This document shows, piece by piece, positions 19,800 to 57,186 of a DNA stretch of 64,000 nt; positions within the stretch are counted from its first letter, which is position 1, and each line of letters starts with the position of its first letter. Made by a program: the position numbers and the translations under genes. Source of the DNA: a virus (taxonomy: Duplodnaviria > Heunggongvirae > Uroviricota > Caudoviricetes); IMG/VR virus record IMGVR_UViG_3300042561_000621; one strand, given 5' to 3'. The notes under the pieces were generated by a model that made no database searches, was not told where the DNA came from, and worked only from the letters and a program-made list of their open reading frames with translations.

Positions 19800-21038
19800 A
19801 TGAGAAAAAATAAAGATAAAGGTATTTATAAAATAATAAATATTATTAATAATAAATATTATATAGGTTCTAGCGTTGATTTACAAAGTAGAAAAGCAAA
19901 TCATTTTAGAAAACTAAAAACAAATAAACATCATTGTGTTCATCTTCAAAATGCTTGGAATAAACATGGAGAAGAAAACTTTAAATGGGAAATAGTAGAA
20001 ATACTAAATGATTTAGATTTAGCTGAAATTAGAAAAGTAGAACAAAAATATATTGATGCTGATTTTAATAATCAATATAATATTGCAAAAGATACTATGG
20101 CTCCAGGAATTTATTCAGAAGAAGTAAAGCAAAAACAAATTAATGCTTGTAGAGATACAATAAGACCTAATAACAAAACAGGTCATACAGGTATTCATTA
20201 TTCAGAAAAAGAGAAAGATTATAGACCCTCTATACAAGTTTGGGGTATTAGAGTATTTCTTGGTTCTTATAAAACATTACAAGAAGCTATTAATAAAAGA
20301 AAAGAAGCTGAAGAATATTTTTGGCAACCTTGTATAGAAAAATTATCTAAAGAATTAAAACAATTAATTGTTAAACAATATAAAGAAGCTAATAAAATAG
20401 CTAGATCTAATACAAATGTTGAAGGAGTTGTTTATTCTAAAGATAGAGAATACACAGCTTATATAACAACTAAAGACAATATAGCAATTCATTTAAGTAC
20501 TAATCTAACTTTTAAACAAGCCTTAAAAGTTAGAAAAGAAGCAGAACAATATTTTTATTCAGAAGAATTTATAAATTTATCTTTTCAACAAAAAGAAGAA
20601 GCTATAAAACAATACAAAGACAAATTAAAAGGATGTAGAAATAAATCTGGCCATAAATTTGTTATATGGAATAAAAATACAAATGATTGGGTAGTTAAAC
20701 CTTTTATTGATAATAAATTAATAATGCTTGGCTATTATAAAGATTTGAATAAAGCTATAAAAGTAAAAAATGCGGCTTTATTATATTTTAACTCTACTGA
20801 ATTTTTATCTAATAATTTAGAAACTAGATTACAATTAGCACAAAACTATAAAAAAGAATGTTTATTAAATAAGAATAAAGATAAAGAACAAGGAATTTGT
20901 TATATTAAATCTAAATCTATTTGGAGGGCTTATATATTTTACAATGGTAAAAATATATCTTTAGGTCAATATCCAACTAAAGAAATGGCTCTTCAAGTTA
21001 GAAAAGAAGGAGAGTTAAAATATAGAAATAATACTTAA
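19800..21038 (+). CDS. free-standing GIY-YIG homing endonuclease with four AP2-like DNA-binding repeats
   Basis: GIYKIINIINNKYYIGSS...R...N GIY-YIG core, followed by four repeats of the type YRPSIQVWGIRVFLGSYKTLQEAINKRKEAEEYF; it lies on the strand opposite to its neighbours. Confidence 0.75.
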   Translation: MRKNKDKGIYKIINIINNKYYIGSSVDLQSRKANHFRKLKTNKHHCVHLQNAWNKHGEENFKWEIVEILNDLDLAEIRKVEQKYIDADFNNQYNIAKDTMAPGIYSEEVKQKQINACRDTIRPNNKTGHTGIHYSEKEKDYRPSIQVWGIRVFLGSYKTLQEAINKRKEAEEYFWQPCIEKLSKELKQLIVKQYKEANKIARSNTNVEGVVYSKDREYTAYITTKDNIAIHLSTNLTFKQALKVRKEAEQYFYSEEFINLSFQQKEEAIKQYKDKLKGCRNKSGHKFVIWNKNTNDWVVKPFIDNKLIMLGYYKDLNKAIKVKNAALLYFNSTEFLSNNLETRLQLAQNYKKECLLNKNKDKEQGICYIKSKSIWRAYIFYNGKNISLGQYPTKEMALQVRKEGELKYRNNT

Positions 21039-22982: not shown

Positions 22983-24401
22983 CTAATTATCTATTACTAA
23001 TAATTCACCAAATAAAGGAATATTACTCTCATTGTATTCCTTTTCTAATACTGTCCATATAACCTGTATAGAACCTTTATTATTAAATGGTTCTAATTCT
23101 TGTGGAACTCTTTCTAAGTATAAATCTGTTAATACAACAATTAAACATACATTATTAATATCAACTTGTTCAAAACCTTTATTAATAAACTGTTTAAAAA
23201 GAGGTATAACATCAGTACCTCCACCTCCTACTAAGTATTTATCTTTATGTTCTAATAACACATCAATAAGAGGTCTATCTAACTCACTCATATTAAATAA
23301 ATGAGTACCAGTAATGCTATCATCAAATGTTACTAAAAGTAAATTACCAACAACTTTACTAATACTATTAATTTGATCTAAGAAGTGATTTAAACATTCA
23401 ATGGAGCCATAAATACTACCAGATAAATCAACAAATACAGCTATTGTATCTGGCTCTGGCAGTCTAATATAAGGATGGTTAATAGCACATCTATTAAAAG
23501 GAGATAAACCCATTTCATAACCATAAAACTCCTCCTCGCTAACAATATTATAATTAGTTATAATCTTATCTGATAAAGAATTAGAAGCTATTTGTTTAAG
23601 TCTATCCTCCCATCTTAAATCACTACTTTGAATAGAATCTACATCAGAAGGTATTAACTTATTAGATAACTTTCCATGTTGCTTTTTCTTATCATTTCTA
23701 ATAGCATTAGCAGCCTTTTTAGTCAGATCTTTAAGGATTTCTTGTTGTTCTTCATTATTGTTAGTAGAATCAGCTTCTAAAACATCAAGATCTATCTCTT
23801 CTAACTTTATAGTAAGACCAGATGGTAATGTAATAGTATCTAAGTCATCATTATTACCATCTTGTTGTTGTCCCTTATTACTACCTCCACCACTAAACTT
23901 ACTATTAGTTAACACATAAGCAAGTAATTGTTCTTCTGTCCAATTATTATCATTAATTCTTGGATGATCTTTTTCTAAAAAAGTGGATAAAAAGACACCG
24001 CCTAAGTCACCAAAAGTATAACCCGCCTCTTTTAATGATTGATTAATAATAGCATCTTCAACTAGATTAAGTATATGGTTTAAGAAGTAAGCTTTATCAG
24101 CATATTGTTTATACAAACCCTTATTATGAAGACCAAATCTATAACTATGATTAAGATATATATGATACATCTCATGCAAAGTTAAAGTTATAAACTCACT
24201 TAACTTACTACTATCAGCCTCAATTTTATTAATGTAAGACTTATTATACATAATAGTATTATTAGTACAAGCTGCATAAGCAAAGTCATAATCCCCTATC
24301 TTAATACTAATAGCAGATAACAAATAAGCAAAAAATGGTTCAACTTTATTAACTAATAAATATATAGTTTTATCAGTAATCTTAAAACTTAGTTTAGACA
24401 T
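22983..24401 (-). CDS. VWA-domain protein with N-terminal zincin-like HExxH motif (DUF2201-like partner of a MoxR ATPase)
   Basis: TLHEMYHIYLNH (HExxH) and the MIDAS motif VDLSGSIYGS; overlaps the upstream AAA+ gene by 8 nt. Confidence 0.6.
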   Translation of the reverse strand: MSKLSFKITDKTIYLLVNKVEPFFAYLLSAISIKIGDYDFAYAACTNNTIMYNKSYINKIEADSSKLSEFITLTLHEMYHIYLNHSYRFGLHNKGLYKQYADKAYFLNHILNLVEDAIINQSLKEAGYTFGDLGGVFLSTFLEKDHPRINDNNWTEEQLLAYVLTNSKFSGGGSNKGQQQDGNNDDLDTITLPSGLTIKLEEIDLDVLEADSTNNNEEQQEILKDLTKKAANAIRNDKKKQHGKLSNKLIPSDVDSIQSSDLRWEDRLKQIASNSLSDKIITNYNIVSEEEFYGYEMGLSPFNRCAINHPYIRLPEPDTIAVFVDLSGSIYGSIECLNHFLDQINSISKVVGNLLLVTFDDSITGTHLFNMSELDRPLIDVLLEHKDKYLVGGGGTDVIPLFKQFINKGFEQVDINNVCLIVVLTDLYLERVPQELEPFNNKGSIQVIWTVLEKEYNESNIPLFGELLVIDN

Positions 24402-52680: not shown

Positions 52681-52694
52681 AACAAAGCCTCATA

Positions 52695-53072
52695 TTAATC
52701 CTTAAGAATATCTATTACATCATAACCAAATAAGGAACAATACAGCCTTAAAAGAGATATTGCATCTTTAGATAAACCACTTGGATAATCTTTTGAAAGG
52801 GCTAAATAATCATCAACTATATAAGTTTTTATATTGTTTAAAGCTTCATCAAATGTTTTACCATATGCAGAGAGCTTAAACGTAGGAGATGATGCAATAA
52901 ATAGATCTTTCTTTGGTTGAGTTACTTTAATTATAATTGGGTAAGTAAATCCATAACCATCAACAAGATCTGTTATTTCACAGAATGATGCAATATATTC
53001 TCTAACAAAGAGATAATGTATAAATTGAATAATAGATCTAAATAAACCTAATTCTGTATCTTTACTACTCAT
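52695..53072 (-). CDS. hypothetical protein (125 aa)
   Basis: ORF. Confidence 0.4.
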   Translation of the reverse strand: MSSKDTELGLFRSIIQFIHYLFVREYIASFCEITDLVDGYGFTYPIIIKVTQPKKDLFIASSPTFKLSAYGKTFDEALNNIKTYIVDDYLALSKDYPSGLSKDAISLLRLYCSLFGYDVIDILKD

Positions 53073-53299
53073 TAGTTTCTTTTTTTAACTCCAATTATAT
53101 CTAGTAACAAAGTAAATAAAAACAAAGGCCAAAACAAAAATACAACTACAAATATATAAATTATGTATAACTTTTGTATAATTTTTGACCAATTATAATA
53201 ATATAAAGTCAAATCTTTGTACAAATAATTGTTTAGGTTAGCCCAAATAGACACCATAAACAACACACCAAAAAGAGGATAAACAATAAAATAATTCAT
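53072..53299 (-). CDS. small membrane protein (2 TM)
   Basis: Hydrophobic 75-aa product. Confidence 0.35.
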   Translation of the reverse strand: MNYFIVYPLFGVLFMVSIWANLNNYLYKDLTLYYYNWSKIIQKLYIIYIFVVVFLFWPLFLFTLLLDIIGVKKRN

Positions 53300-53308
53300 A
53301 ATATAACC

Positions 53309-53581
53309 TCAATTAAAAATAAATCTATCAAGAAAAACAAGACAAGGATTCCCCTCTGTTGTAATTATAAATTCATTAGTTTTAGGATCAACGGTTATAA
53401 TAACAGTTTGTTGTATGCCATTATTAATTTTGATTGGTTGTTCTTGTGAAGTATTATTAATTTGTTCACATCCAACATTGAAATTCCTAGTAACTTTACT
53501 ACTCATAATAAATCTATTTCTTATTATCCCTTTCCAAATCTGTTTCTGGATCAATTTTGTTAATTTCAAAAGAAAAGCCAA
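53309..53581 (-). CDS. hypothetical protein (90 aa)
   Basis: ORF. Confidence 0.3.
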   Translation of the reverse strand: MAFLLKLTKLIQKQIWKGIIRNRFIMSSKVTRNFNVGCEQINNTSQEQPIKINNGIQQTVIITVDPKTNEFIITTEGNPCLVFLDRFIFN

Positions 53582-53852
53582 TTCTAATAGTACTTAAAAA
53601 TATAATAAGATCAACTAATAAATAAGTAGAATAAAAAGGCCAAAACATAACAAAGAAACAATTACCAATAAAGAATTTTAATTCTCTTTCTTGATTACTC
53701 ATTCCTATCAAATCAGTATTTAAGTAATTAATTATAAACTTATTTATAATTGTATTAAATATTAATGCTTGAAGCCAACCAATTGATATATAAACTAATA
53801 AATATTCAATAGGAATATCATTTAAGTCATTTAAAACTGTTAAATCAATCAT
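53514..53852 (-). CDS. membrane protein (multi-TM)
   Basis: Hydrophobic segments; start uncertain because of a 68-nt overlap. Confidence 0.35.
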   Translation of the reverse strand: MIDLTVLNDLNDIPIEYLLVYISIGWLQALIFNTIINKFIINYLNTDLIGMSNQERELKFFIGNCFFVMFWPFYSTYLLVDLIIFLSTIRIGFSFEINKIDPETDLERDNKK

Positions 53853-54685
53853 ACTAATAAACTCTCTATACTACTTACAATTAAATGTCTAACAAACTTC
53901 TTTGGCAGTCTAACATTACTTACTTTATCTAGTAATATAGGCTTAAACAATGGTGCCACCTGTTCAAATGTAAACCCTGCTAAGCCACATCCAACTTCAG
54001 TTACAAGAAATGTTAGATGTGTATTATCTTTAGCAAATGTTATAAATTTGCTAACTTCATCTTCTAGCAAAGACATAGGAATAGATGGTCTTTGAGGCAC
54101 ATTTAAGTCTGTTGTAATAAGACCATATGTTTGACCTTTATAAGCTTCAACTAAGCCATAAACAGCACCAAACTTTAAAGCATGTTTAGCTGCTCCAGCG
54201 CCGTGGCGAAAATCTTGATTAGCTCCATAGAGAAACACTTCATTAAGCTCTAAATCATTAATAATATCAGGTGAATAATTATATGTTGGAGGATATAAAT
54301 TATAAGTAAATTGATATAATTCTTTATCTTTATTAGATTTAAAATAAGCTCTAGCAAAAGCTTCATCTCAACCTTCTAATTCACACCATTCTTTAATTCC
54401 ATTATGATGTTCAAGTAACATATAGTATGGATATAATTTATGTCCAACTCTATCTAAATGTTCTGTTTTAGTAGCAAAGACTATAATAGAATCAACTACT
54501 TGTTTGGTTTTATTATCAGTTCTAATAAATCTAACAGGCTGACCATGTTTAAGAGTTCTAATTAAAGCAATTTCATTAGGATAACATCTAGTAGTAGCAG
54601 TTCTAATACCTGTTCTAATAGCATCTATAGTATACATGTCAAGATTAGACATGTAAAAAGACATATTAAATGTTGGAATGTTCAT
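53849..54685 (-). CDS. two-domain protein with C-terminal macro-like (ADP-ribose binding/processing) domain, interrupted by a single in-frame TGA at 54368-54370
   Basis: ORFs 54368..54685 and 53849..54238 are in the same frame (...EWCELEG-TGA-DEAFARAYFK...). The downstream half has no ATG for 40 codons. In the C-terminal half, ...YGANQDFRHGAGAAKHALKFG... and ...LTFLVTEVGCGLAGF resemble the macro-domain Gly-rich loops. Confidence 0.4.
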
Positions 54686-54692
54686 AATAAAT

Positions 54693-54865
54693 CACTTAAA
54701 AAACTTATTAATAAACTTATTAATCTTATAAATAATAGAGTTAAACAAAGATCTTTTATATACTTGTCCATCTTTAATAACATTGCCCTTAACTTTATTA
54801 CCTTTTATAATAGTAATAGTTTCTTTTCCTGTTTTAACATCAATAGATGTAATTTTACCTGACAT
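54693..54865 (-). CDS. small K-rich protein (57 aa)
   Basis: MSGKITSIDVKTGKETITIIKGNKVKGNVIKDGQVYK...; an AAGGAG RBS lies 7 nt upstream; below the ORF-track cutoff. Confidence 0.4.
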
Positions 54866-55136
54866 TTGTATTCTCCTTTACACTTTTAAAAGTTAAAGAT
54901 AATTGTTGTAAAGCTTCTGAACCCTTAAAACATACAAAGTTTTTACCATCAGCATCACTTTTCTTATATAAAACAGTAATAATTTCTTCATTATTATATC
55001 TATTAACAAGAGGATGATAAAACTTAGCTATCCAAGTTTTACATGAAGCTATACCCTTACTAAGCACTGCATAATCAATATTAGTAATAACAATTGTAAA
55101 AACAACTAAACCATCTTTACTTATATATGTCCACAT
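54855..55136 (-). CDS. MWTYISKDG-family protein, paralog 1
   Basis: Shares N-terminus MWTYISKDG...NIDY.ILSKG with the adjacent gene. Confidence 0.45.
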   Translation of the reverse strand: MWTYISKDGLVVFTIVITNIDYAVLSKGIASCKTWIAKFYHPLVNRYNNEEIITVLYKKSDADGKNFVCFKGSEALQQLSLTFKSVKENTNVR

Positions 55137-55141
55137 AATAT

Positions 55142-55399
55142 TTAATTCTTTTGGCTTGTAAATCTATGTTCTGGAGTAATAACTAATTGATTAAACGCCA
55201 CTTCACCTTCAATGTAAATAAAACCACCAGTCTTTTTATAGATAATAGTGAGGTATTCACTATTATAATAATTATTAATCTCTTTATGATCAAAGTATTT
55301 CTTCCAAGGACTTTGTAAACCCTTACTAAGAATTACATAATCAATGTTTGAGTATGGAATAGCATATTTAGTTCCATCTTTACTTATATATGTCCACAT
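55142..55399 (-). CDS. MWTYISKDG-family protein, paralog 2
   Basis: Tandem paralog. Confidence 0.45.
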   Translation of the reverse strand: MWTYISKDGTKYAIPYSNIDYVILSKGLQSPWKKYFDHKEINNYYNSEYLTIIYKKTGGFIYIEGEVAFNQLVITPEHRFTSQKN

Positions 55400-55439: not shown

Positions 55440-55811
55440 TTAACATTGAGGATCTTCTCCCCACACAAACTGATTTAAAAACTTACAATAATAAGTAGCT
55501 TCATCTACATCATTACTTATATCTTTATAGGGTGTTAATGGTACTGCATGTTTACACATAGCATTATCACTACAACATGATTTTGTCTTTGTATTATCAT
55601 AGAAAATAGTTGGATAACCTTCTCTATGTTCTACTTTATTAGCTGCTTTTAAATCATTACAATAGTTAAAGTATTTACTAGATAGAACCAATTCAGGAGG
55701 CCATTTTAATTTAAGTCTTTCATATATAGTCTTAGCGGGTATATTAAGTTCAATTGACCATTGTTTAACAGTTTGAACCTTACCTTTATACTTAATCTTT
55801 CTTATAGACAT
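55440..55811 (-). CDS. putative DNA-binding protein (N-terminal HTH, Cys-rich C-terminus)
   Basis: VKQWSIELNIPAKTIYERLKL HTH-like segment and C-terminal cysteines. Confidence 0.35.
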   Translation of the reverse strand: MSIRKIKYKGKVQTVKQWSIELNIPAKTIYERLKLKWPPELVLSSKYFNYCNDLKAANKVEHREGYPTIFYDNTKTKSCCSDNAMCKHAVPLTPYKDISNDVDEATYYCKFLNQFVWGEDPQC

Positions 55812-56562: not shown

Positions 56563-57186
56563 TTAAAATAAATCCAATTTCAAAGTTTTTAAAACATCAT
56601 TAAATACAGTAAGATCAGCTAGATTAAATATAGGTATATTGTAATCTAATGCTATTCTTAAACCTTGTCCAGTACCACCAACAACCTTTGCATTAGGTGT
56701 CCAACAAAGGACAAAATCAACTGGTGATTTTAAGTCTGGTCCTAACACACAATAAGCATTTCTAGCCATTAACTTTTTAGTAAAGGGTGTTAAGTGTTGT
56801 GGTGCTGGATGATACTTATCAACTGTTTTTAACCCTTCATTCCAATTAAATAAAGAGGAACAATCTATAAAGTCAGTGCCATTTGCTGTTTTATAGTTAA
56901 AGTATTTAGAAGGCATAAACACTTTATAAAAGTATATTCTTGCTAAGAATGCTGCATCAGCACCTTCAGCAGCACCACTTGTATAAAGTATAAACAATTG
57001 ATGTTCTAACCTTTTACTTATATGTGACATTCTAATTAGAACTTCATATGGAGTACTTCTAGCACCAATACCAGCATAAGTTAATACTCTATTACTGTCA
57101 TCTTCTTTTTGTTTAATTAAAGATTGTAATAGAGTATTAAACTGGCAATTATGTTGAACATTAACTAAATTAATGTTATTAGTCAT
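56563..57186 (-). CDS. DprA/Smf-like (SLOG Rossmann-fold) DNA-processing protein
   Basis: LTYAGIGARSTPYEV...ILYTSGAAEGADAAFLARI matches the DprA pattern VGSR..S.YG....L...G...VSG.A.GID..AH. Confidence 0.45.
   Translation of the reverse strand: MTNNINLVNVQHNCQFNTLLQSLIKQKEDDSNRVLTYAGIGARSTPYEVLIRMSHISKRLEHQLFILYTSGAAEGADAAFLARIYFYKVFMPSKYFNYKTANGTDFIDCSSLFNWNEGLKTVDKYHPAPQHLTPFTKKLMARNAYCVLGPDLKSPVDFVLCWTPNAKVVGGTGQGLRIALDYNIPIFNLADLTVFNDVLKTLKLDLF

Follow-up and report, generated by a model that had tools for sequence, protein, structure and literature searches.

The question raised by this locus is whether a TGA inside an otherwise open reading frame of an uncultured phage marks regulated readthrough, a reassigned codon or a gene that was broken recently. 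In the 64,000-nucleotide stretch of DNA analysed (the window), which has a GC content of 26.7% and carries the majority of its genes on the minus strand, positions 54685..53849 of that strand form one frame of 278 codons plus a stop. The frame opens at an ATG at 54685 and reaches its natural stop at 53851-53849 (279 codons with the stop), and its sole break is a TGA at 54370-54368, codon 106, in the context GGT TGA GAT (...EWCELEG*DEAFARAYF...) with G as the +4 base. No other TGA in the window is flanked by such long open frames (107 and 172 codons). Because out-of-frame stops occur at a density of ~9% per codon, a 172-codon open stretch after a stop has p ~1e-7, and the open frame 3' of the TGA is not due to chance. 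Translation would find no ATG, GTG or TTG for 43 codons downstream of codon 106, the first being a GTG at 54238-54236 and the first ATG lying at 54076; the first-pass annotation had correctly noticed the lack of a start and had given the stretch as 40 codons without ATG. It had also described TGA as a rare stop in a TAA-dominated genome, and this is borne out by the minus-strand ORFs of at least 50 aa, which end with TAA in 76 cases, TAG in 11 and TGA in 8. The natural stop at 53849..53851 (minus strand) is itself a TGA, placed where the gene and the next one (53852-53514) overlap in ATGA, and 47/47 homologues end there. Four of the eight minus-strand TGA stops (53311, 53851, 54370 and 54694) lie within 1.6 kb (window 53309-54865), where three successive same-frame ORF pairs have TGA as the sole separator; of these stops, 53851 at least is ancestral, since relatives too have the ATGA overlap.

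When the joined sequence was searched against 5.8 billion proteins, 47 homologues without interruption were found in related metagenomic phages, 259-294 aa long (typically ~277 aa), with 47-87% identity and 91-100% query coverage; a further cluster member, with 90% identity, is the nearest intact relative. The alignment is colinear across the TGA in all 47 full-length homologues, and the split frame is therefore one gene (53849..54685, minus strand), unbroken in the homologues and broken here, as the first-pass annotation had proposed from two ORFs in one frame with nothing but TGA between them. Since colinearity leaves zero added sequence, an intron, intein or other insertion at the TGA is ruled out. 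Position 106 is Trp in 47/47 aligned homologues, within the motif LEGWD(E/S)FA, and is Leu in one truncated relative that does not belong to the alignment. At the DNA level, the 5/5 relatives that were read have GGT TGG GAT (L003, lying on a 257-kb scaffold; L004, with 92% nucleotide identity to the window over ~12 kb; L087; L005; L086), where the window has GGT TGA GAT. Judged by this alignment, the in-frame TGA (54368..54370, minus strand) stands in place of the conserved Trp106 codon and is the product of one G>A transition, TGG to TGA. An otherwise identical TGG version of the gene is absent from the protein collection.

The fused protein was modelled with AF2 from a 48-sequence alignment (pLDDT 88.6, pTM 0.84), giving two domains packed together. 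Residues 1-130 (54296..54685, minus strand) form a predicted ASCH/PUA-like domain with the ASCH beta-barrel fold and a conserved GxRxxTxR at 26-33, in place of the ART, DarT or Tpt1 domain that had been suggested for this half. An inter-domain linker of residues 131-148, PPTYNYSPDIINDLELNE (54242..54295, minus strand), leads to a divergent macro domain of the A1S_2505 family at residues 149-278 (53852..54241, minus strand), which has the three-layer alpha/beta/alpha macro fold and conserves N156, HGAGAA and VGCGLAG; the Gly-rich motifs quoted in the first-pass annotation are indeed present. In the model, codon 106 comes after helix 94-104 and ahead of helix 108-117, both in the N-domain, to which strand 124-129 also belongs. 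Because the TGA thus lies inside the N-domain, before its last helix and strand, it is not a clean domain gate, and the earlier idea of a stop placed between the N-domain and the macro domain does not hold. The 105-aa product, as modelled, would be a truncated ASCH fold without helix 108-117 and strand 124-129 and is probably non-functional.

The two halves differ in how they can be placed among known families. Neither the halves nor the fused protein matched any Pfam family at E<=1, Macro PF01661 and ASCH included, while the positive control, phiKZ AdfM, matches Pfam Macro at 4.9e-7. NCBIfam NF049995 (A1S_2505, annotated as a phage non-structural protein) covers residues 150-264 over model positions 1-109 of 109 with 96.2 bits (cut-off 45), and PHROG 2072 matches with an E of 4.9e-25. 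The wider A1S_2505 family profile aligns with phiKZ gp104 (AdfM) at an hhalign E of 2.5e-5 and weakly with human TARG1 across ITK...GCGLD (E 0.06). Because Pfam Macro fails, it is fold, profile-profile comparison and NCBIfam A1S_2505 that carry the macro call, and with it the original macro-like reading of the C-terminal half, the search with PF01661 having given no match. For the N-half, no match was found in Pfam, PADLOC or PHROG; its profile gave noise only against PDB sequences, found this phage clade only among 1.84 billion representatives, and in the domain scan hit just two loci, both on metagenome contigs of JGI, with no hit in GTDB genomes, so that no host was found. There is likewise no Pfam ASCH match to relate it to known ASCH/PUA-like domains (E. 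coli YqfB ac4C amidohydrolase, ZmASCH, EF3133), from which it differs in forming a tiny sequence family seen only in this phage clade.

DarG2 and AdfM macrodomains take ADP-ribose off DNA. The A1S_2505 family (NF049995; PHROG 2072) is widespread in phages, with 425 phage records and 93 IMG/VR loci, and no tested function for it was found in the literature. FGSN/YGAN, HGAGAA, PT(K) and VGCGLAG are common to the family and the present protein. A typical member stands alone, is ~150 aa long and has Lys in PTK (35/42), whereas this clade has an N-terminal ASCH-like domain and Thr: Thr192 (window 54110-54112) stands where DarG, AdfM and TARG1 have their catalytic Lys, and this residue is Thr in 48/48 ASCH-fused proteins. 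Thus the catalytic DarG K80 and AdfM K78 correspond to Thr192 here, while their Asn (N22, N23) is kept as N156; phage AdfM strips DarT2-added ADP-ribose off DNA, and the roles of the DarG and AdfM residues have been described (PMC13309987). The substitution suggests that the macro domain of the fused clade either has changed chemistry or only binds. Further differences are that the PADLOC DarG model matches AdfM (4.4e-39) and finds no match here at E<=1, that the ASCH-macro protein has no DarT-binding C-terminal domain, and that DarG and AdfM have no ASCH fusion. ICP1 AdfB proved not to be a macrodomain. Other ADP-ribose-related motifs are kept (N156 and the Gly-rich HGAGAA and GCGLAG loops), and by analogy we infer that the macro domain binds or hydrolyses ADP-ribose; the modelled fold of the ASCH/PUA-like domain would fit binding of nucleic acid or nucleotide. 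The gene would then act in counter-defence by binding or removing ADP-ribose on nucleic acid, a role drawn from fold and analogy only. Protection from ADP-ribosylating host defence is the likeliest role, given that the nearest characterised analogues are the DarG2 and AdfM macrodomains.

The TGA is present in several assemblies. The exact 105-aa product is encoded on at least four contigs (JGI 3300059473, GCA_043538025.1, Logan SRR27419709), whose readable DNA is 100% identical to the window; each contig record comes from one or two samples, and the identical contigs are probably from one project, which limits their independence. The same TGA also stands on a fifth contig, GCA_043537245.1 (L091), whose haplotype has lost 29 bp close by, at window ~53562-53590; this loss alters the 3' end of the downstream 112-aa gene (53852-53514, minus strand). 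The deletion therefore reveals population heterogeneity beside the TGA allele, and because the same TGA recurs in several assemblies and on the deletion haplotype, a one-off assembly error is unlikely. Values of dN/dS between the window and relatives are 0.14-0.25 upstream of the TGA and 0.21-0.26 downstream, and those of two intact relatives are 0.16 for the N-terminal and 0.30 for the C-terminal part. The window-specific branch carries 29 synonymous and 28 non-synonymous changes (28/30 and 39/32 for intact relatives), and all family-invariant residues are kept in the window gene. By these comparisons constraint is not relaxed on either side of the TGA, a pattern that efficient decoding of TGA as Trp would leave as well. 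None of the ~17 orthologues common to the window and L004 (92% identical) is disrupted; general assembly decay is ruled out, with no second broken orthologue found. As far as the sequences tell, the TGA allele is real and recent, in one genotype.

TGA is a terminator in this phage genome, which uses the standard code. In minus-strand ORFs of 80 aa or more, TGG occurs in frame 162 times and TGA internally once, and TGA ends conserved genes; for these reasons it is not a sense codon here, and a genome-wide TGA = Trp is ruled out by the same codon counts and conserved ORFs. Reading TGA as sense raises the coding-strand ORF content from 15,986 to 16,899 aa only. TGA closes other genes, several of them via ATGA overlaps, and in 4/7 the frame reaches TAA or TAG after 2-22 further codons; one such short extension follows the ASCH-macro gene's own natural stop, the shared end of the 47 homologues. 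Code 4 would join the upstream 57-aa gene to the ASCH-macro gene, and 53581-53309 to 53299-53072, pairs that relatives keep separate. In 93 alignments no in-frame stop was seen at conserved positions in relatives. A scan for tRNA genes, which reached ~74 kb (the window and ~10 kb past its start; <60% of a genome of at least 130 kb, with relatives up to 257 kb), found none, and none occurs in L092, L089, L091 or the relatives' loci. Stimulatory RNA structure around or after the TGA was not detected (MFE z = -1.26, with 19/200 shuffles folding equally well), Rfam, SECIS included, gave no match around it, and a scan for promoter-like and terminator-like sites gave no excess over chance. Selenocysteine is ruled out, since homologues have Trp and there is no SECIS in Rfam and no significant hairpin. 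One public gene call at this locus used genetic code 4. It lies on the 2.4-kb contig L091 (GCA_043537245.1 JBFDSX010000538.1, corresponding to window 55552-53073), where P0119 is a 341-aa fusion of the upstream 57-aa gene, both gene halves and 3 extra codons. Because DNA identical to L091 on longer contigs was called under code 11, this call is probably a metagenomic gene-caller artefact of a short low-GC contig.

The first in-frame restart after the TGA is the GTG at codon 150 (54236..54238, minus strand), and the 129-aa product that would start there is exactly the NF049995 domain; public gene callers call this 129-aa ORF. GTG is found at codon 150 in 5/6 sequences, L005 having GTC, and makes up 6.5% of the Val codons in the window. 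No convincing and no conserved Shine-Dalgarno sequence was found before GTG150. Its conservation could be a hint of an internal start for the macro domain. In close relatives (L094 2501-4317, and also L095 and L093), the gene is split at the domain junction, corresponding to window ~54240, by a gene for a 265-aa endonuclease with PHROG endonuclease and homing-endonuclease matches. After the split the ASCH gene has 162 aa and ends ...DDEVFVIDSCINSIL, and the macro gene, of 153 aa, begins MINVNEETYDYSPENIMELKENEIFVFGSN. A junction peptide of ~20 residues is present on both sides of the endonuclease gene, which points to insertion of a free-standing homing endonuclease and not of an intron. The copy kept on the macro side starts inside the linker (Y.YSP.NI.EL) and forms the N-terminal leader of the stand-alone macro protein. 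The two domains can therefore persist as separate polypeptides.

Several explanations compete for the TGA, and they differ in how much of the protein would be made. If TGA were efficiently read as Trp during infection, through a code-4 host, a suppressor tRNA(UCA) or a UGA-reading tRNA-Trp, the gene would be fully functional. The stop does sit exactly at a Trp, as code 4 predicts and as in code 4/15 recoded phages, which this low-GC jumbo phage from metagenomes otherwise resembles; the downstream sequence is without decay, the genome has 26.7% GC, a public code-4 call gives the 341-aa fusion on a 2.4-kb fragment, the tRNA scan covered <60% of the genome, and UGA-reading variants of bacterial tRNA-Trp have been proposed (PMC13092985). 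Recoded phages, however, have many in-frame stops, whereas here there is one in 64 kb against 162 TGG, although code 4 in an AT-rich genome would make TGA the strongly preferred codon. Conserved genes also end with TGA, decoding of TGA would fuse genes that are separate in relatives, relatives have no in-frame TGA, no suppressor tRNA or other tRNA was seen in 74 kb, and the code-4 call is best explained as the gene caller's choice of model; we regard such decoding as quite improbable. A maintained TGA is very improbable in our estimate: it would act as a dose-reducing or infection-stage valve, through a UGA-reading host tRNA-Trp or a phage suppressor tRNA, on an ASCH-macro protein that recognises ADP-ribosylated nucleic acid without the DarG Lys. 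Programmed, regulated readthrough, which would give a short ASCH product and a rarer full-length product at a set ratio, as for Qbeta A1, was suggested by the first-pass annotation and is the least probable of the readings. Of all stops UGA leaks most, and tRNA-Trp is its natural misreader in both E. coli and B. subtilis (PMC5289835); the base at +4 is G and not the strongly terminating U, and the downstream frame is intact. As in these leaky systems (Qbeta A1, E. coli, B. subtilis), the decoder would be tRNA-Trp acting on UGA, with the difference that here the inserted residue is the ancestral one. Against it, the stop is not conserved (Trp in 47/47, TGG in 5/5), no significant downstream structure and no Rfam match were found, and the allele occurs in one genotype only. 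The Qbeta stop is conserved and functional and its short product is the main functional protein, but here the stop lies inside the N-domain and the short product is a truncated fold.

Two further explanations concern the reality of the stop and the fate of the sequence behind it. That the true codon is TGG and the TGA a sequencing or assembly artefact would be compatible with a single-base change and with TGA contigs that are identical and possibly drawn from overlapping read sets. The same base is, however, found in JGI, GenBank (two assemblies) and Logan assemblies and on the 29-bp-deletion haplotype, the local sequence GGTTGAGATG has no homopolymer run and no other gene in the region is damaged, which leaves an artefact improbable, though more probable than a programmed stop. 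The likeliest of the alternatives, though an unlikely one, is a functional split, with the macro domain made alone from GTG150 and working without the ASCH domain. This explanation draws on the exact match of the GTG150 ORF to the NF049995 domain (residues 150-264), on stand-alone domains of ~150 aa being the common form in hundreds of phages, on the close relatives that encode the two domains separately, and on GTG occurring at codon 150 in 5/6 sequences though it accounts for 6.5% of Val codons. Yet there is no conserved Shine-Dalgarno sequence at GTG150 and L005 has GTC, the codon lies 132 nt past the stop, which is far for termination-reinitiation, the region has no promoter-like excess, and the product would be without the ~12-20-aa leader (SPDNITEL...) that stand-alone and split versions keep.

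The reading we prefer, with a probability of roughly 0.7, is a recent and genuine TGG>TGA nonsense allele, a hypomorph or young pseudogene, and not programmed recoding. In this reading, an uncultured jumbo phage of low GC has one genotype in which a single G>A change made TGA out of the TGG of Trp106, while the intact gene encodes a 277-278-aa accessory protein with a lineage-specific ASCH/PUA-like domain packed on a divergent macro domain. Termination at UGA would leave the 105-aa fragment, and full-length protein would arise only through ordinary low-level misreading of UGA by tRNA-Trp. Such misreading would restore the exact wild-type sequence because the lost codon is that for Trp. The macro domain alone might in addition come from GTG150. 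There is no sign of regulated readthrough, so that between the two options offered by the first-pass annotation, readthrough and a fresh pseudogene, the latter is favoured. With TGG in the relatives and no stimulatory RNA structure, its proposal of a programmed event is not supported.

The phage that carries the allele encodes a polymerase of family A, tail fibres and numerous homing endonucleases. Megablast gave no match to a similar isolated phage, and the DNA polymerase is <=30% identical to those of Microcystis phages. Mobile endonuclease genes (HNH, GIY-YIG and LAGLIDADG, with TnpB/OrfB_IS605 in L003) are abundant in the phage group, at window 19800-21038, 22983-24401 and 55440-55811, L004 8670-9056, L003 4701-5936 and 14462-17216, and L092 11499-12359. 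Their presence varies among syntenic relatives, as with an HNH gene that is found in L004 and not at the window site. Directly downstream of the macro gene, window 52686-53855 and L004 10825-11926 hold different small-ORF cassettes, a mosaic replacement of ~1.2 kb. Window 54855-55136 and 55142-55399 are tandem paralogous genes of 93 and 85 aa, both starting MWTYISKDG... and without a family match, of which relatives have one or two copies. Window 56563-57186, which lies 2 kb upstream of the ASCH-macro gene, encodes a DprA-like/SLOG protein (PHROG 768, E 4e-44), and fusions of A1S_2505 domains with the SLOG family PF10686 are known from some other phages.

When a low-GC phage carries a TGA in frame where Trp is expected, neither code 4 nor programmed readthrough has to be the reason. 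As a recoding candidate the locus carries little weight, being one nonsense allele, of recent origin, in an accessory gene that is dispensable. The fusion of an ASCH-like with an A1S_2505 macro-like domain is specific to a clade of uncultured jumbo phages and is a modest novelty in a known, uncharacterised phage family. If the protein does counter ADP-ribosylating defences, it would do so by different chemistry or by binding, since the catalytic Lys of DarG2 and AdfM is absent. That one genotype has lost the gene, and that in others an endonuclease gene splits it, fits an accessory counter-defence gene under fluctuating selection.
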